In this document: positions 8,195 to 59,225 of the stretch, piece after piece | How the letters are laid out: each line of letters opens with the position of its first letter | How positions within the stretch are numbered: the first letter of the stretch is position 1 | IMG/VR virus record: IMGVR_UViG_3300045988_119033 | Source: a virus | Length of the DNA: 64,000 nt | Strand: one strand, 5' to 3' | Notes under the pieces: model-generated | What the model saw: the letters and a program-made list of their open reading frames with translations, nothing else | What the model was told of the DNA's origin: nothing | Database searches by the model: none | Program-made: the position numbers and the translations under genes

Positions 8195-8608
8195 ATGAAA
8201 CAAGTATTATATAAAAATGATATATACCCCTATAATGTAAGGGTATTGCTTGGAGCAGATGAAGAGTATATAGTTAAGACGTTCGCCAACCTGGAAGTAG
8301 AAGATCAGAGCTGGGAGGGGTGGACTGATGATTATGGTGGCAGAACTATTTTCGTAGGAAACCGAACCAATCACAGGAAAGAAATATGTTTCTTATTTCA
8401 TTCGCTGTCTGATATGGATGTTAGAACCATAGGACACGAATGCCTGCACGGTCTTTCTATTTATTGTAAGTATCTTAATATGGATTACGGTTTTGAAGTC
8501 GGAGGAGATGAGCATGCCGCCTGTCTGATGGGATGGTTAGTTGATAAGGTTTGTGGTGCTTACCACAAATTTAAGAAGGAGGAAGAAAAAAATGGCAAAG
8601 AAGACTAA
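8195..8608 (+). CDS. Small HExxH zinc-metallopeptidase-like protein (137 aa)
   Basis: The only recognisable feature is GHECLHG (HExxH). Its own promoter and terminator context lies between rsr and the tail lysin gene. Confidence 0.4.
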   Translation: MKQVLYKNDIYPYNVRVLLGADEEYIVKTFANLEVEDQSWEGWTDDYGGRTIFVGNRTNHRKEICFLFHSLSDMDVRTIGHECLHGLSIYCKYLNMDYGFEVGGDEHAACLMGWLVDKVCGAYHKFKKEEEKNGKED

Positions 8609-12840: not shown

Positions 12841-15672
12841 ATGAAATTACGAATCATAAAAAATCGTCCGGTATTCGCTCCTGGTGGTAGTGTTCAGGAT
12901 AAAAAACAGGATATTAATGTATCCTCTACTCAGCCTATTCTTGATTATGGAACACCTGTTAATAAATGGGGTAAATCTGATATTCAGAATATATATATGC
13001 CTTATGATGTGACTTTAGAAGCAGAGGAGGGGGAGATAAATCCATTTAGCAATATGCCTACATCTGATCCATTCTTTGAAAATCATGATGCAGGATATGC
13101 AGGATATCTTGCTGATAATAGGAGCATGGTTAAAAACGTAGAGAAATCAGTTGTTAATAATGCAATGAATGTAGGTGGCTCTGATGCTGATTCTTCTAAA
13201 GAAAAGCGATCACAAGATGGAAATCCTTTGGATCCTATGACTGCTCCTTATTATTCTTCTGATCTTGCTGGTAGGTCCCAGATGTTTGGTGCGAGTTTGG
13301 GAAGAATAAGGGCTGGAAACAAAACCGGTGCTAACATAGCGGAGGCGGCTTTATCCGGTCTTAGTCTTGGGATGGGTCTTACCCGTAATATTATGGGGGC
13401 TTCTTCTGAGGCTTATGCCGCCAGTAGAGACGAACAAGCGGCAAGAGAGAAACTTGCCGAGAATCGCCGTCAGCAGTTTATCCGATGGGAGCGTGAAGGG
13501 GGAGGTATTAATCTTGGAAATGGTCAGAGAATAGATACGTCTGATATGACAGGGGAATATATTTATCCTCTTCCTAAATCTATGGAGGATAATGCCAATG
13601 TTGAGATAGAAAAAGGAGAATATGTTTCGACTCCGGATGATGTTGGCCCTATGGAGGCAAAAGGTAGCAGGCATGAAGACGGCGGCACTCCTGTTGATTT
13701 ACCCGAAGCTCATATTATTTCAGATTACCGTACTATCGATGATGATTTTGCCTCTTACATAAGGGAAAATTATGGCATTAGAGCTACGGAAAAAGATACG
13801 TATGCTACGCTTCTTGATAGGTACAAGAAAAAAATAGGATTGTCTGAAAAGTATGATGATCAGGAACGTGTTTTCAAGAGGTTGGAAAAGAATAAGGATG
13901 TTAAGGATAAAAACACTTCTGAGTTAAATAAGTCCATTCTTTCTAAGTACGTAAATGATAATCAAAAGGAAATAGACGAACTTGAGGCGCAATTCAGGTC
14001 TTTTGCTGACATCGTTTATAACAAGCAAGAGGAATCCAAGCGCCAAGAAAAGATAGATGCTTTCTTTAGAGATGGCGGAAAAGTTGATTTAAATGCTGTG
14101 AGAAAACAAGCTAAGGCTCTTAACGTATCTGAATCTGATGCTAAAAATTGGATATATGATGAGTATGTAAAGAGAGTTAGGAAAATGGCTGAAGGCGGTC
14201 CTACCAAGGAACAGATAGAGTGGGGTAAGAAAGTACAGCAGCTTTTAATGAAGCAGTTTGGACGTACTCTTAATATGTCTATAGTAGATGTTGCGGACAG
14301 AGAGCAGATTCTTAATCCTGATTCTGGTGTAAATTCTAATCAAAATCTGCAACATAGAAGTAGTGCCGGTTATGGTAGGGTAAATAACAAGGCTATTTCT
14401 AATTTGCTTGATATTAACCGTTGGGCTAATAAATACAATACGGATGGTGATTTTAATACAGAAGGATTCCAGACTGGATACAATAGCCAACTAAATAGCC
14501 TATGGGCTTTGGCGGAATCAGGTGCTATAGCCAATGCCGAAAAAGCCAAGAAATTTAGAGACGAATACGGATTTTGGGGAGAAGATGCTGGTAAGTACGA
14601 CCAAGGAAGTAAATCGGCATATAACTCATTTGCCGTAGATGACAAATTTGGACAAACTACGGCAACCAGATCATTTTATGGATTGGATGTAGTTACTCCT
14701 GAACAAAAAAGATTGTTGAACGAAAAAGGAATAAAAAATTATGTTGACTTATTTGGTGATAAATCTGATGCAGCTAAGAAGATTCTGGGTGCCGATTATA
14801 ATAAGTTTGCTGCTTTAAAAGATAGTGGTTTGATGTCGGAAATGGACTTTGTTTTAGAAGCCGTAAACCCAGCATCAAAACCTATAGAAGCTGAACCTGT
14901 AGGAACCGGTTCTAAATCTCCCAACCCAGGTTCTCCGGGCAGGATAGAAGTGAAGGAAGAAAATCCTGTTATTAATACTACTGTAGAAACGGATGTAGAT
15001 GAAGAGGATGATACAAACAGAAGCAAGGGCATGGGCCCTGCTTTATCAGGTCCTATATTCCCTGAGATGTTGAGGATGCTTGATACCGGATTAGAGATAG
15101 AGGGACTGGAAAGGCATCAGGCTCCGAGAATAGACCCGGTTCTGCAATCTGCTGATCAGTATATCAACGAGCTTAACCGTGCGACATCGGCTCAGTTGGA
15201 CGCAATAGGTGACGTGCCCGACTCCCAGCGTTCCGCTATTCTGGCTAATATGAACGCCATAGCTGGAAGCAATATAGCCAAGTACATTAACGAAGTAAAT
15301 TTCAATAACGCAAGGCAAATAAACGAAGCTGATAGATTTAACGAAATGGCTTATGTTCAAACAGATGATAAGAACATAGCGGAAAGGCAACGTTATGAAT
15401 CCGGATTATTGAAGGCTATGGCTATAAGGGATGAAAATCTTGCTCGTTATTATGACAGTATAAACAGCGAGATACAGAATAAGTTTAATGTTAGAACTTC
15501 ATTGAACACCATAGCTTCCATAGCTCCGAATATGAGAATGCTTCCAAGTGGTCAAATTATTTACGTTCAAGGTGATCAGGATGTGATGAATATGGGTGAT
15601 TATTCCACACCTTACTTGAGAAGTTTAAATGAAGAAGATGATGAAACTAAAAGAAGAAGGAGGACCAAATAG
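12841..15672 (+). CDS. Large virion protein (943 aa), function unknown
   Basis: Long ORF in the structural block with Gly/Ala-rich and charged coiled-coil-like segments. Confidence 0.5.
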   Translation: MKLRIIKNRPVFAPGGSVQDKKQDINVSSTQPILDYGTPVNKWGKSDIQNIYMPYDVTLEAEEGEINPFSNMPTSDPFFENHDAGYAGYLADNRSMVKNVEKSVVNNAMNVGGSDADSSKEKRSQDGNPLDPMTAPYYSSDLAGRSQMFGASLGRIRAGNKTGANIAEAALSGLSLGMGLTRNIMGASSEAYAASRDEQAAREKLAENRRQQFIRWEREGGGINLGNGQRIDTSDMTGEYIYPLPKSMEDNANVEIEKGEYVSTPDDVGPMEAKGSRHEDGGTPVDLPEAHIISDYRTIDDDFASYIRENYGIRATEKDTYATLLDRYKKKIGLSEKYDDQERVFKRLEKNKDVKDKNTSELNKSILSKYVNDNQKEIDELEAQFRSFADIVYNKQEESKRQEKIDAFFRDGGKVDLNAVRKQAKALNVSESDAKNWIYDEYVKRVRKMAEGGPTKEQIEWGKKVQQLLMKQFGRTLNMSIVDVADREQILNPDSGVNSNQNLQHRSSAGYGRVNNKAISNLLDINRWANKYNTDGDFNTEGFQTGYNSQLNSLWALAESGAIANAEKAKKFRDEYGFWGEDAGKYDQGSKSAYNSFAVDDKFGQTTATRSFYGLDVVTPEQKRLLNEKGIKNYVDLFGDKSDAAKKILGADYNKFAALKDSGLMSEMDFVLEAVNPASKPIEAEPVGTGSKSPNPGSPGRIEVKEENPVINTTVETDVDEEDDTNRSKGMGPALSGPIFPEMLRMLDTGLEIEGLERHQAPRIDPVLQSADQYINELNRATSAQLDAIGDVPDSQRSAILANMNAIAGSNIAKYINEVNFNNARQINEADRFNEMAYVQTDDKNIAERQRYESGLLKAMAIRDENLARYYDSINSEIQNKFNVRTSLNTIASIAPNMRMLPSGQIIYVQGDQDVMNMGDYSTPYLRSLNEEDDETKRRRRTK

Positions 15673-43712: not shown

Positions 43713-43717
43713 AACAA

Positions 43718-43756
43718 TTCTGCATATAGACTCTATACTATCGTCTATATGCAGAA
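43718..43756. terminator. Bidirectional terminator at the junction of the convergent plus and minus modules
   Basis: Perfect 14-bp inverted repeat TTCTGCATATAGAC/GTCTATATGCAGAA with an 11-nt loop. TTGTTTT follows on the minus strand. Confidence 0.65.
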
Positions 43757-43770
43757 TTGCATATAACTTC

Positions 43771-43989
43771 CTAAAGTAATAGCGGATCTATATATGCATT
43801 ACCTCGTAATACGGATAAAGAATCATTTTTGTCTTTAATTATTAATGCTACACCTCTACCTTTAAATATAAATTCTTTTTGTGTATCATTATTTAGAAAT
43901 TGCTTAAATTCTTCTATTTCTTTATCAGAAGGTCTAAACTCTTTTGCAAATACATAAACTTTTTGTTCGAATGTTAACTTTTCGTTCAT
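43771..43989 (-). CDS. Small hypothetical protein (72 aa from the revised start MNEKLTFEQK...)
   Basis: The revised start at 43987-43989 sits directly downstream (minus sense) of a conserved 25-nt element also found before ORF 44494-44649. Confidence 0.4.
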   Translation of the reverse strand: MNEKLTFEQKVYVFAKEFRPSDKEIEEFKQFLNNDTQKEFIFKGRGVALIIKDKNDSLSVLRGNAYIDPLLL

Positions 43990-44020
43990 AACTCTAATTT
44001 TTAAAAGTGAATAATTAATT
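43990..44020 (-). promoter_or_regulatory. Conserved upstream element (plus-strand sequence TAAT TTTTAAAAGTGAATAATTAATT), copy 1
   Basis: Identical over about 24 nt to 44650-44680. It ends 6 to 7 nt before the ATG of a small minus-strand gene. Confidence 0.45.
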
Positions 44021-44311
44021 AAGGTTGCCAAAAGAAAGGAAAATAAGTTCTTTAATACAAGCTTTTGGTATGGTCATTATACCAGAAGCTTGTTCTAATG
44101 TATTGGAATTACCAACAGCATAATGACCAGCTACAGATATAGATCTTTCATTTTCATGTACAACAATACCATAGCTCTCTATTTCTGATATATCTGTTTC
44201 GTAATCCTCCAGATCTACCCATGTTCTTTCTGATAGGTTGGAATCTATCCACTTAACTAATACCCGCTTGTTTAAAAGCGATTCTTTTCTTTTATTTCTA
44301 CTCTTTTTCAT
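44015..44311 (-). CDS. Hypothetical protein (98 aa)
   Basis: ORF. Its stop lies inside conserved element copy 1. Confidence 0.4.
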   Translation of the reverse strand: MKKSRNKRKESLLNKRVLVKWIDSNLSERTWVDLEDYETDISEIESYGIVVHENERSISVAGHYAVGNSNTLEQASGIMTIPKACIKELIFLSFGNLN

Positions 44312-44344
44312 AACTTGTTATATTGATTTTTTAGTAAACGAAAA

Positions 44345-44374
44345 GAGATTGTGCCAGCATTTTGACACAATCTC
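44345..44374 (-). terminator. Hairpin GAGATTGTG/CACAATCTC, followed on the minus strand by a T-rich run
   Basis: 9-bp stem with a 12-nt loop. TTTTCGTTT follows in the minus sense. Confidence 0.45.
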
Positions 44375-44493
44375 AATTATATGAGAATAATACTAAGAAA
44401 AGGTGTAAAGTGGTATATAATTACCATTTAGAATAAATGAGATTTTAAACATCCCTAACGCTTATCCTTCTCAAAACATTTCATTGGATATCG

Positions 44494-44649
44494 CTATGAT
44501 GTTGCTTTCTTTGCGATTAGATCATTGATAGAATCAAGCAGTTTTCGGTCGTGAGGAGAATCGTAATTTTTAAGTTTTTCCTTACAAATTTCTCTCATTT
44601 TGATAAGACGATTCAATTCTTGTTGTCCATTTTCTTTTGATGTTTTCAT
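44494..44649 (-). CDS. Small hypothetical protein (51 aa), not in the supplied ORF track
   Basis: Manual translation of the minus strand: MKTSKENGQQELNRLIKMREICKEKLKNYDSPHDRKLLDSINDLIAKKATS. Preceded by conserved element copy 2. Confidence 0.35.
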   Translation of the reverse strand: MKTSKENGQQELNRLIKMREICKEKLKNYDSPHDRKLLDSINDLIAKKATS

Positions 44650-44680
44650 AATTGTAACTTTTAAAAGTGAATAATTAATT
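44650..44680 (-). promoter_or_regulatory. Conserved upstream element, copy 2
   Basis: AATTGTAACTTTTAAAAGTGAATAATTAATT, to be compared with copy 1. Confidence 0.45.
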
Positions 44681-44683
44681 GAT

Positions 44684-45163
44684 TTATAAAAAATGTACCC
44701 TATCCGTAAAAACTAAACCAACGCCATTCATAATATATCCTACTACAGGAGCTTTGTCAAATTCCTCCTTCGTAGCCCAAGTAGCATTATCAGGCATCAG
44801 ATCCTTAAATGCATCCGAAACATCACCCTGACACCAGCAATTGTTTGATGCAACAATACCCTTCCCTTCGATATTGACATACATTTTTCTTCCACCGCAT
44901 CCAAGGCTATTCCATCCTCTTGGTACGTTTTCTACCATAGGCTTAAGCACCCAGCTTTCACCGTCTATCCTAATCCATCCAGGATCGTCTTTGTGCTTGT
45001 CGTACATATTTTGCCAAAAAGAGCATTCGTAGCACCATCCCTTGTCTTCCATGATAGTTCTTATCTCACACCTTTCAAATCCATCTGCATCCATCGTGTG
45101 CGGAGAATGAGGCTGGTGAGGGGTGCCACATTTTGGGCATACGAGTTTTAAATTCTTTTCCAT
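44684..45163 (-). CDS. Cys/Trp-rich hypothetical protein (159 aa)
   Basis: ORF with multiple CxxC pairs (CPKCG, CYEC, CWCQ). Confidence 0.45.
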   Translation of the reverse strand: MEKNLKLVCPKCGTPHQPHSPHTMDADGFERCEIRTIMEDKGWCYECSFWQNMYDKHKDDPGWIRIDGESWVLKPMVENVPRGWNSLGCGGRKMYVNIEGKGIVASNNCWCQGDVSDAFKDLMPDNATWATKEEFDKAPVVGYIMNGVGLVFTDRVHFL

Positions 45164-45175
45164 ATTATTTCACTT

Positions 45176-46520
45176 TTACGATCTTTAACAAATCCCCTGC
45201 TTTTAAGCAGGGGATCAATGATTCTTTTATTCATATATGTATTTTTAAATAATTGATTCTGATATATGCCAAAAAGTTATTATTATATTTGTATCATAAA
45301 TGTGGTTAAAAATGATTTCATACAAATATAACATATATTATTCAAAGAAAACGAAGTATCTTGTCAAGATACTTCGCGAATGCTGTTTTGTATGGAATCA
45401 TGCTTTAGCTCTACAACGTAGGTATTACAAACTGTTTGGGAAATATATCTCAGTTGGCAAGATGCAAAAACATTTCTCTAAAAGAATTAAGAGAAATCTT
45501 CTTCATTCCCAAACAACACAAGAAATTATTCAAAGGTTAGATTCAGCATACAATCGCTTCTTCAAGAAGTTGGCTAAACGACCTCCTAAGTTTAAATCAC
45601 CGGAGAAATTCAATTCTTTTGTATTCAAACAAGGAGGGTTTACCCTGAATGGAAATTGTCTAACAATTAACAAAGGAAAGAAACATTTTAAGTTTTCATA
45701 CAGTAGACCTTATGAAGGTAATGTTAAACAAATTAGAATAGTTAGAGAAACCTGTTCCCGTTTTAGTTTGATTATAGTTACAGACCATAATCCTGTAAAC
45801 TCTTATAGAAAGACACATGATGGTGCATCTATCGGATTGGATTTTGGTCTGAAAACTTATCTAACTAAAAGTGATGGTAGCAAAATCGATTCTCCATTAT
45901 TCCTCAAACAATATCAAAACAAGATTAGAAAACTAAACAAACGGTTTTCTAATGCAAAGAAAGGATCCAATAATAAAAGAAGGAGACTGTTTGAACTACA
46001 ACAAGCGTATCGTAAAATAAACAATCTTCGATCAGACTTTCAATGGAAATTAGCTCATGATTTGTGTAAACAATATGATTATATTTTTATTGAAGATCTA
46101 AACATTGAAGGAATGAAACGTTTGTGGGGAAAGAAAGTTTCTGATCTCAGTCATTCTTCTTTTATTGACAAACTTACATATATTGCTTCAAAGTATGGAG
46201 TGATAGTACATAAGATTGACAAATGGTATCCTTCTTCCAAAACTTGTGAATGTGGCTGCATTAATAAAGGACTGTCGTTACGCGACCGCACGTGGGTATG
46301 CCCGTCGTGCGGCGCGGTCAACGACCGTGATGTTCTTGCATCCCGTAATATACTTCGGAAGGGCATTTCCGAATTGGAGAGTAAGAGTAATTCCAACGAT
46401 AGTAATGTCGGGGTTTCTTGCGTTTGTATCCAAGAATCCCATTTGCTTTAGCGATGGGAGTATGTCAAGATCTTAATAGAATCTCCGATATTGTATTCCC
46501 CTTGGTATCCAACGAATTTT
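45176..46520 (+). mobile_element. Putative IS200/IS605-family element carrying tnpB only (IS1341-like); boundaries approximate
   Basis: TTAC at 45176-45179 followed 12 nt later by the subterminal hairpin ATCCCCTGC-TTTTAA-GCAGGGGAT (45192-45215). The 3' 100 nt of tnpB is GC-rich and hairpin-forming. No tnpA in the window. Confidence 0.45.
45300..46451 (+). CDS. tnpB: TnpB (IS200/IS605 OrfB-family RNA-guided endonuclease)
   Basis: The N-terminus YKYNIYYSKKTKYLVKILRECCFVWNHALALQRRYYKLFGKYIS matches the TnpB consensus. The C-terminus has a RuvC-like IFIEDLNIEG and a CxxC...CxxC zinc finger, CECGCINKG...WVCPSCGAVNDRDVLASRNI. Confidence 0.85.
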   Translation: MWLKMISYKYNIYYSKKTKYLVKILRECCFVWNHALALQRRYYKLFGKYISVGKMQKHFSKRIKRNLLHSQTTQEIIQRLDSAYNRFFKKLAKRPPKFKSPEKFNSFVFKQGGFTLNGNCLTINKGKKHFKFSYSRPYEGNVKQIRIVRETCSRFSLIIVTDHNPVNSYRKTHDGASIGLDFGLKTYLTKSDGSKIDSPLFLKQYQNKIRKLNKRFSNAKKGSNNKRRRLFELQQAYRKINNLRSDFQWKLAHDLCKQYDYIFIEDLNIEGMKRLWGKKVSDLSHSSFIDKLTYIASKYGVIVHKIDKWYPSSKTCECGCINKGLSLRDRTWVCPSCGAVNDRDVLASRNILRKGISELESKSNSNDSNVGVSCVCIQESHLL

Positions 46521-58978: not shown

Positions 58979-59225
58979 CTTTTGTATCCGATTTGGATCC
59001 CCTATTAGCTTTTACTGATTTATACCTAAGACCGTTCTTGGTATGAGAACAATCCTTGCCTTTCCTCCAGCCCTTACCCTTCTTCTTGTCCGTTTCGTAG
59101 TTTTTACGACCAAGCTCCCGGCGTTTGGCTTTCTGTTCCGGTCTGGCATTTATCTCCTTGTCCTTTTTAGCCTTTTTCTTCCTGGCTTCGGGGTGAGTCC
59201 TGTAGTACTCTGTTGATCTGCCCAT
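58947..59225 (-). CDS. Highly basic small protein (92 aa)
   Basis: Lys/Arg-rich ORF. Confidence 0.35.
   Translation of the reverse strand: MGRSTEYYRTHPEARKKKAKKDKEINARPEQKAKRRELGRKNYETDKKKGKGWRKGKDCSHTKNGLRYKSVKANRGSKSDTKGDKNARGDSK

Follow-up and report, generated by a model that had tools for sequence, protein, structure and literature searches.

A candidate portable translation-initiation leader shared by Bacteroidota and their phages

Within the 64,000-nt stretch of viral DNA analyzed here (IMG/VR record IMGVR_UViG_3300045988_119033, hereafter the window), two small minus-strand genes are each preceded by a near-identical element, the core of which, the 16-mer TTATTCACTTTTAAAA, is also found at a narrow distance from gene starts in Bacteroidota chromosomes and in unrelated phages. 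We propose that this element is a transcribed, portable translation-initiation leader whose copies coincide with mosaic junctions in this phage lineage, a reading to which we assign a probability of about 0.5. Bacteroidota ribosomes ignore Shine-Dalgarno (SD) sequences, and the choice and ranking of start sites in this phylum are only partly understood, the initiation signals known so far being loose adenine preferences. Searches of the searchable literature with the motif string returned unrelated primers only and no description of the element, and promoters or repeats of this type are not a subject of the paper on epsilon crAss-like phages.

In the mechanism that we envisage, the element would be transcribed within the mRNA and would act on the ribosome, not on RNA polymerase. 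The leader would give a small gene a G-free, unstructured landing site, placing an A-tract at -13 to -10 and an adenine at -6 (in copy 2 also at -3) relative to the start codon, such that a newly acquired small gene could be translated in a polycistronic transcript even with an upstream stop codon inside or adjacent to the element. In epsilon crAss-like phages, the leader would additionally form the 5' edge of exchangeable gene cassettes.

A repeat with a G-free core precedes two small genes of the window

The window is ~91% identical to phage crAssE-Sib (GenBank OR575929, deposited as 'csAssE-Sib'), an epsilon crAss-like phage of human gut origin (PMC11054128), and by this similarity is itself an epsilon crAss-like phage. 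Its structural genes lie on the plus strand up to 43712, and minus-strand genes occupy the remainder. The -7 box of Bacteroidota primary-sigma promoters, TAnnTTTG, in which T-12, A-11, T-8, T-7, T-6, and G-5 are nearly invariant (PMC6847099), is found 17-26 nt 5' of the ATG of the plus-strand genes starting at 8195, 12841, 25978, 32234, and 36250 and of the minus-strand gene starting at 59225. These boxes fit a Bacteroidota host and suggest that the six genes may be transcribed by a Bacteroidota-host RNA polymerase with very short leaders.

The element was first noticed as a near-identical 25-nt sequence immediately upstream of two small genes, and both sequences quoted in that original prediction are present, within the ranges it gave. 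The repeat is real but longer than was stated, comprising a direct repeat of 36 nt (43985-44020 and 44645-44680, 33/36 identical) that extends across the ATG and a further two bases. The 26-mers at 43995-44020 and 44655-44680 on the plus strand both stop 5 nt, rather than 6 to 7 nt, short of the start codons, which read as CAT on the plus strand at 43987-43989 and 44647-44649. A shared 22-mer, TTTTAAAAGTGAATAATTAATT, is exact in both copies and, in the sense of the genes, contains no G, which bears out the earlier observation that the element does not match TAnnTTTG. Elsewhere in the window the 22-mer has no match with up to 3 mismatches allowed (0 expected, from 100 shuffles), and a looser scan of the 64 kb, requiring at least 16 of 22 matching positions, gave 5 extra matches vs 5.85 expected by chance.

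Read in the sense of the genes (minus strand), both copies consist of AATTAATTATTCACTTTTAAAA followed by 9 nt and ATG. In copy 1, where the 36-nt repeat (43985-44020) comprises the extended leader, the ATG, and 2 nt, the core 16-mer lies at 43999-44014, followed by the 9-nt spacer ATTAGAGTT (43990-43998) and the ATG at 43989-43987, which places AAAA at -13 to -10 and an adenine at -6. In copy 2, the core lies at 44659-44674, followed by the 9-nt spacer GTTACAATT (44650-44658) and the ATG at 44649-44647, with AAAA at -13 to -10 and adenines at -6, -4, and -3. Copy 2 begins 3 nt past the stop codon of a conserved 159-aa gene (44684-45163, minus strand; last codons ...HFL*), and it is present in a long, lineage-specific form (44645-44692, minus strand) composed of TTTTTATAAATCA, AATTAATTATTCACTTTTAAAA, 9 nt, and ATG. 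Copy 1 holds the stop codon (44015-44017) of a 98-aa open reading frame (ORF; 44015-44311, minus strand) that is a 3'-truncated copy of a 114-115-aa gene found in relatives. Both copies sit within a polycistronic arrangement, which is split into two units by an intrinsic terminator located past the 51-aa gene and ahead of the 98-aa ORF (44345-44374, minus strand; -23.1 kcal/mol, z = -3.5).

The 72-aa gene behind copy 1 (43771-43989, minus strand), the last of the minus-strand block, and the 51-aa gene behind copy 2 (44494-44649, minus strand), taken from the ORF list, are unrelated to each other. The same 72-aa gene with the same leader is present at one of the retrieved loci (L028) and has a weak PHROG match of unknown function, while an identical copy of the 51-aa protein lies behind the same leader at two others (L009 and L297), at a different genome site. 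Family searches with the small leader-bearing proteins gave no Pfam match and only weak PHROG matches, of unknown function, with none for the 51-aa protein.

The core recurs at a narrow distance from gene starts across Bacteroidota

A search for further copies, proposed as a check when the repeat was first described, found them in plenty, relatives of the window included. In IMG/VR, the exact 21-mer form of the element was found at 30 loci, where it precedes at least 12 different genes and ends 8-10 nt before the ATG in 30/30; these also include tail or baseplate genes of unrelated phages, where the flanking sequences are unrelated too. When one genome per bacterial species was scanned with a 20-mer, 37 loci were found, ~25 of them in Bacteroidota, distributed over the NCBI classes Bacteroidia, Chitinophagia, Flavobacteriia, Sphingobacteriia, Cytophagia, and Saprospiria. 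At 16 of these ~25 loci, a real gene starts 7-12 nt (once 17 nt) downstream, again with unrelated flanks, and the genes concerned include superoxide dismutase, TonB-like proteins, porins, and lipoproteins; most 20-mer matches outside Bacteroidota have no such gene start. A metagenome scan for the last 16 nt with an ATG returned at least 120 loci in at least 110 unique contexts, at least 67 of which open ORFs of at least 60 aa. Among the metagenome contexts listed, the 5 nt upstream of the 16-mer are unconserved, which makes TTATTCACTTTTAAAA the phylum-wide core and the longer prefix a feature of the phage lineage. By this distribution, the core is a recurrent putative leader of a minority of genes across Bacteroidota and many of their phages. 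The 109 downstream proteins match 51 Pfam families, including transposases, integrases, SSB, phage structural proteins, and metabolic enzymes, and therefore lack the coherence of a regulon.

Nearly all gene-linked copies have the core 7-13 nt from the ATG, with a mode of 8-10 nt, and this narrow, fixed spacing resembles that of a ribosome-binding signal. When the 16-mer was scanned for without any constraint on what follows it (at least 120 loci), an ATG followed at 7-10 nt in 49 of the matches listed, at 11-13 nt in ~8, and further away in 2-3. The remaining listed matches lie mostly inside long ORFs, in a chance-like manner, or in AT-rich non-genic sequence; none has a clear gene downstream of it, in a scan that did not cover genes for tRNA and other RNAs. 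Where there is a perfect TAnnTTTG box, 12-23 nt separate its end from the core downstream, a variable distance that places the core inside the 5' untranslated region (UTR). A co-directional ORF ends at most 80 nt upstream in 46/101 contexts, suggesting that the element can work inside operons.

Some side observations concern the bacterial copies. The genes behind the motif at several bacterial loci encode superoxide dismutase, rubredoxin, universal stress protein, and DUF892. Among cultured carriers is Aquimarina sp. W85 (NZ_CP170198.1), where a 233-aa gene is concerned (L148). At two other loci, the motif lies 9 nt upstream of IS110-family recombinase genes, and copies of this family could carry the leader around genomes.

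Sequence specificity and adenine placement

The core is specific in sequence, beyond AT-richness. This was assessed in IMG/VR with a pattern consisting of the first 8 nt of the core, TTTTAAAA, a spacer of 7-10 nt (N7-10), and ATG, the controls having the first 8 nt permuted and therefore matching in composition. The real core half, TTATTCAC, returned 54 unique contexts, of which 42 have an ORF of at least 60 aa, vs 2 unique contexts for the permuted control TATCTTAC (a single such ORF, doubtful) and 19 for the permuted control ATTTCATC (none with such an ORF). When the 21-mer was scanned with 4 free positions in IUPAC code, the canonical bases were found in 30/95 loci, and these 30 comprise all clear gene starts except for three, which are one-mismatch neighbours. 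The other genes in the same loci show, in their average upstream profile, only a general A enrichment at -14 to -10 and no motif, and the element is therefore a distinct leader class. The same profile, with its single A peak at -14 to -10, rules out that the element is the tail of a generic consensus.

Where the element places its adenines is consistent with what is known of initiation in the phylum. In Flavobacterium johnsoniae, adenines at -3, -6, -12, and -13 enhance initiation, and expression falls by up to 90% when the A-run at -14 to -10 of the EF-Tu leader is mutated (PMC6847099). The A-tract and the adenines at -6 and -3 of the element match these initiation-promoting positions, which supports a role as a translation leader. 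Across the retrieved copies, the spacers carry an adenine at -3 in 84% of cases when 10 nt long and in 67% when 9 nt long, and at -6 in 80% of the 9-nt spacers. The two window leaders are also predicted to fold weakly, with minimum free energies of -6.3 and -4.1 kcal/mol (z = +1.4 and +1.7 vs shuffles); 189 and 195 of 200 shuffles, respectively, fold at least as stably.

Copies of the putative leader lie at mosaic junctions between small-gene cassettes

Epsilon crAss-like genomes carry a longer leader (up to ~46 nt, from TTTTTATAAATCA to ATG), found at three sites and heading 2-3 small accessory genes in each genome. Site A, which is that of copy 2, follows the 159-aa gene, and the leader-bearing allele is found in 5/80 relatives only. 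Site B lies between a Tad2-like gene and thymidylate synthase. Site C follows an outer-membrane-like gene, a lipoprotein gene, and a terminator hairpin; among its 11 readable loci, 7 have the exact 21-mer, 3 have one or two substitutions, and 1 (L118) has a shortened, degenerate form. Behind the leader at site C, a different small gene is found in each genome, of 52, 54, 56, 59, 72, 78, or >80 aa. The element is absent from the orthologous place in crAssE-Sib, whose 149.8 kb, when scanned, held two diverged copies only, TTATTCGATTTTAAAA and TTATTCATTTTTAAAA, each before a small gene.

The two repeat copies of the window bracket a mosaic block of ~660 bp (44023-44692, minus strand), the composition of which becomes apparent by comparison with the relative L009. 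The segment 44426-44692, which holds the leader and the 51-aa gene, is 99.6% identical to L009:1746-2012, corresponding to site C of L009, while the segment 44023-44429 is 98% identical to L009:2929-3335; in L009 the two pieces lie ~900 bp apart and in the order opposite to that of the window. Homology to the gene-32 region of relatives stops at 44023, the edge of repeat copy 1, and the point at which the 98-aa ORF is truncated is its junction with the same copy. Since the mosaic pieces and the truncation meet the edges of the repeat, the repeat copies coincide with recombination junctions, and in this lineage these are the mosaic junctions of small-gene cassettes. The arrangement was most likely built by recombination between leader copies, mediation by the element being what we infer from the pattern of junctions.

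Several observations concern the neighbourhoods of these sites. The 159-aa gene at site A has two 3' ends in the population of 80 relatives: the form ending in ...HFL* is joined to the leader in the five carriers, and in most relatives the gene ends differently, overlapping another small gene or leading into another terminator. The gene upstream of site B encodes a protein with a Tad2-like (Thoeris anti-defence 2) domain at several loci, as well as in crAssE-Sib (13792-14061), and the small leader-bearing genes may sit among anti-defence genes. At six loci, the slot at site C adjoins genes for a host-like outer-membrane beta-barrel-like protein and a lipoprotein, and an IS1595-family transposase is often near.

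Weighing the translational reading against its rivals

Several observations weigh against a translation-initiation leader, beginning with its central claim, since that the element raises translation is something that we infer, at even odds, from its distribution, specificity, spacing, and low predicted structure. Pairing with ribosomal RNA (rRNA), a candidate explanation of the sequence, was rejected because the best duplex between motif and 16S or 23S rRNA (-9.6 kcal/mol, with E. coli rRNA and an approximate Bacteroides 16S query) is no better than those of shuffled motifs (-8.5 ± 1.6 kcal/mol); with pairing at chance level, no partner accounts for the favoured TTATTCAC half. A perfect -7 box lies within 60 nt upstream in 8/67 gene-start vs 3/41 non-gene contexts among those listed. 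In an ortholog series of a phage 169-aa protein, sampled by protein similarity alone to avoid ascertainment bias, the exact 16-mer is found only at protein identities of at least ~74%, one close ortholog has a one-base change in the core, and at 50-65% identity the core decays stepwise through TTTTTCACACTTAAAA, TTTTTAACTCTTAAAA, and TTTTTAAACTGATAAATC, while the hairpin and T-tract before it are kept. The 16-mer is thus favoured but replaceable, not strictly required, and the unbiased series does not support strict purifying selection on it; orthologous bacterial leaders keep the 16-mer while their flanks diverge, but these were found by exact match. The two crAssE-Sib copies likewise vary, with CAC changed to CAT in one and to CGA in the other. 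Finally, a strong terminator-like hairpin ends within 8 nt of the motif in 17/94 contexts, site C included, and a gene whose motif stands right after a terminator needs read-through or a new promoter, which favours a promoter over a leader.

The ortholog series was drawn from a widespread family of phages unrelated to the window, which shows, at 26 loci, a constant order of a 306-358-aa gene, a hairpin with T-tract, the motif, and a conserved 169-191-aa protein of unknown function. Its GC-rich hairpin is conserved, with covarying stems, and the motif is sometimes degenerate. From its sequence and neighbours, the 306-358-aa gene, which has no Pfam match, is likely the major capsid gene.

The main rival, which we consider unlikely, is a non-canonical promoter, from which the RNA polymerase of the host, guided by an alternative sigma factor or an activator, would start transcripts a few bases before the AUG. 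At site C and in the phage structural-gene family, the position of the element directly after the hairpin leaves no room for another promoter, and its sharp conservation over 16-21 nt is like that of promoters read by dedicated polymerases or sigma factors. By their function, the stress-type genes among those behind the motif might also point to a link with PM2, a second, non-canonical promoter motif of B. thetaiotaomicron that is enriched at oxidative-stress genes (PMC7366714). Yet a distance of 7-13 nt to the ATG implies leaders of ~0-8 nt, and two studies give a median Bacteroidota 5' UTR of 24-32 nt and put leaders that short at only ~4-6% of mRNAs (PMC7366714, PMC9723704). Moreover, the core has no G and fits at most 4/6 of the near-invariant -7 box positions, canonical -7 boxes lie upstream of it at variable distance, almost no copies lie far from a start codon among the listed matches of the unconstrained scan, and copies occur in short intergenic gaps inside operons and overlap upstream stop codons.

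An ordinary host promoter was rejected separately, as the phage copies and the sequence directly before them contain neither TAnnTTTG nor TTTG. The element shares with primary-sigma promoters (-33 TTTG / -7 TAnnTTTG) their upstream neighbourhood and AT-rich context, but its core lacks TTTG or a properly spaced TA, reaching 4/6 in the best register, and it keeps a fixed 7-13 nt to the ATG where promoters vary in distance, with true boxes found upstream of copies and elsewhere in the window. The best partial -7 boxes match 5/6 positions and precede the two window copies by 10-11 nt; the terminator-preceded form has none. A scan for the sigma-70 consensus found nothing at the element.

The original prediction had named a shared translational operator or 5' UTR as one option, and of its two halves the shared 5' UTR, or translation-level element, is the reading best supported here, the operator ranking as a low rival. 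In the operator reading, which we regard as improbable, a conserved RNA-binding protein or small RNA of the host would attach to the element and repress or adjust translation of the genes behind it. Its sequence specificity beyond AT-richness would suit such a role, as would its overlap with the site at which ribosomes land, the target of translational repressors such as T4 RegA, and the loose stress-related flavour of some bacterial targets. On the other hand, the downstream genes are as heterogeneous as their 51 Pfam families imply, the element averages well under one copy per genome by the scan counts, and it decays freely in the orthologous series. A palindromic operator was rejected because the 12-nt palindrome ACTTTTAAAAGT exists only where the spacer starts with GT, the other copies having none. 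An IHF-like site was likewise rejected: AATCAATTAATTA fits WATCAANNNNTTR, which we take to be the IHF consensus, only in the lineage-specific prefix, and it is absent from copy 1 and from non-epsilon contexts.

It is very improbable that the repeat is a functionless scar of a recent duplication or recombination event that copied a gene start. The copies do lie at mosaic junctions, the block between them is rearranged relative to that of relatives, and 33/36 identity fits a recent event, but the core recurs before more than 100 unrelated genes, as permuted controls do not, and the two window genes behind the repeat are themselves unrelated.

A phage-specific promoter co-regulating early genes, read for example by a crAss-like virion RNA polymerase and the leading idea of the original prediction, is scarcely credible: the element does precede small genes of unknown function on the replication-side strand and is unlike the host -7 box, but it has only 2 copies in the 64-kb window, 2 diverged copies in the 150 kb of crAssE-Sib scanned, and 2-3 per epsilon crAss-like genome, too few for a whole temporal class or a co-regulated early set, its core is common to unrelated phages of other morphotypes and to chromosomal genes of several Bacteroidota classes rather than to one lineage, and in the one crAss-like phage studied the early transcripts of the virion polymerase share no upstream motif (bioRxiv 10.1101/2020.03.07.982082).

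Comparison with known initiation and repeat elements

Against this background, the translation-initiation leader was compared with known systems. The element has the narrow, fixed spacing of an SD site, but it spans approximately -25 to -10, further upstream than SD, and its G-free core is not complementary to the 16S 3' end in the manner of GGAGG. It is closest to the A-rich, SD-independent initiation region of Bacteroidia (Baez et al. 2019, PMC6847099), whose adenine positions and low predicted structure are both found in the window copies and the retrieved contexts: in each case there is no SD, and an A-tract is combined with adenines at -6 and -3. The Bacteroidia region, however, is a loose preference present in most genes, whereas the element is a defined 16-mer whose upstream half, TTATTCAC, is fixed, and which only a small minority of genes carry. 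What is known is thus SD-independent, A-rich initiation, and what the sequences appear to add is the specific upstream half.

The epsilon enhancer of T7 gene 10, UUAACUUUA, is U/A-rich and works with SD in E. coli. In a possible analogy with the element, it has ACUUU followed by an A-rich stretch before a highly expressed phage structural gene, and the motif, too, precedes abundant structural genes in other phages, but unlike the element the enhancer acts together with an SD sequence. Pope et al. reportedly described in 2011 the start-associated sequences (SAS) of Cluster K mycobacteriophages, which contain an SD-like purine core and are not known outside a single phage cluster. SAS and the element are alike as short conserved sequences immediately 5' of the start codons of a gene subset, with several copies per genome and a proposed role in translation; in contrast to SAS, the element is G-free and common to the host phylum and unrelated phages, and the two have no sequence similarity. 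The PeSL (promoter-early stem-loop), a mobile regulatory cassette of T4-type phages, is said by Arbiol et al. (in 2010) to combine a sigma-70 early promoter with a stem-loop; its copies flank small variable ORFs in plastic parts of the genome, where recombination between them shuffles genes. As with PeSL, repeats border small variable ORFs, rearrangements are found at the copies, and here a hairpin and leader precede a variable slot, but no host promoter consensus is seen in the repeated unit, which stays at a fixed distance from the start codon. A search of the covariance models of Rfam 15 gave chance-level matches only (E ≥ 0.029), far below the gathering scores.

Other features of the region

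Between the convergent plus- and minus-strand gene blocks, directly after the 72-aa gene, lies a long perfect hairpin of 17 bp (43716-43759, assigned to no strand; -29.8 kcal/mol, z = -5.4), which by its predicted fold is likely a bidirectional terminator. Relatives with the other allele in this region have a different hairpin. On the minus strand, ~180 nt without an ORF (44312-44493) hold the terminator at 44345-44374 inside an otherwise operon-like stretch, and ~120 nt separate that terminator from the stop codon of the 51-aa gene. Further along, a TnpB-type gene with OrfB_IS605 and Cas12f1-like TNB domains (45300-46451, plus strand) lies on the opposite strand within the minus-strand block. 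At the matching position crAssE-Sib has no TnpB, and its TnpB genes lie elsewhere in the genome.

Implications for start-site choice and cassette exchange in Bacteroidota and their phages

A 16-base leader that recurs throughout a phylum at a fixed distance from the start codon would provide a concrete handle on start-site choice. In a more specific form of our proposal, which we hold only tentatively, TTATTCACTTTTAAAA would be a specific, high-affinity ribosome-recruitment signal, read by a conserved component of the ribosome, for example bS1 or the platform proteins that hide the anti-SD. If TTATTCACTTTTAAAA does recruit ribosomes, a subset of host genes would possess a discrete substitute for the SD sequence, one that phages would have borrowed for their structural genes and cassettes.

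Should the leader work as proposed, it would constitute a compact expression part for engineering gut Bacteroides, and a marker for calling gene starts and small genes in phages, for example crAss-like phages. For the epsilon crAss-like lineage, it would mean that one short leader may both express small accessory genes and supply the homology for shuffling them.

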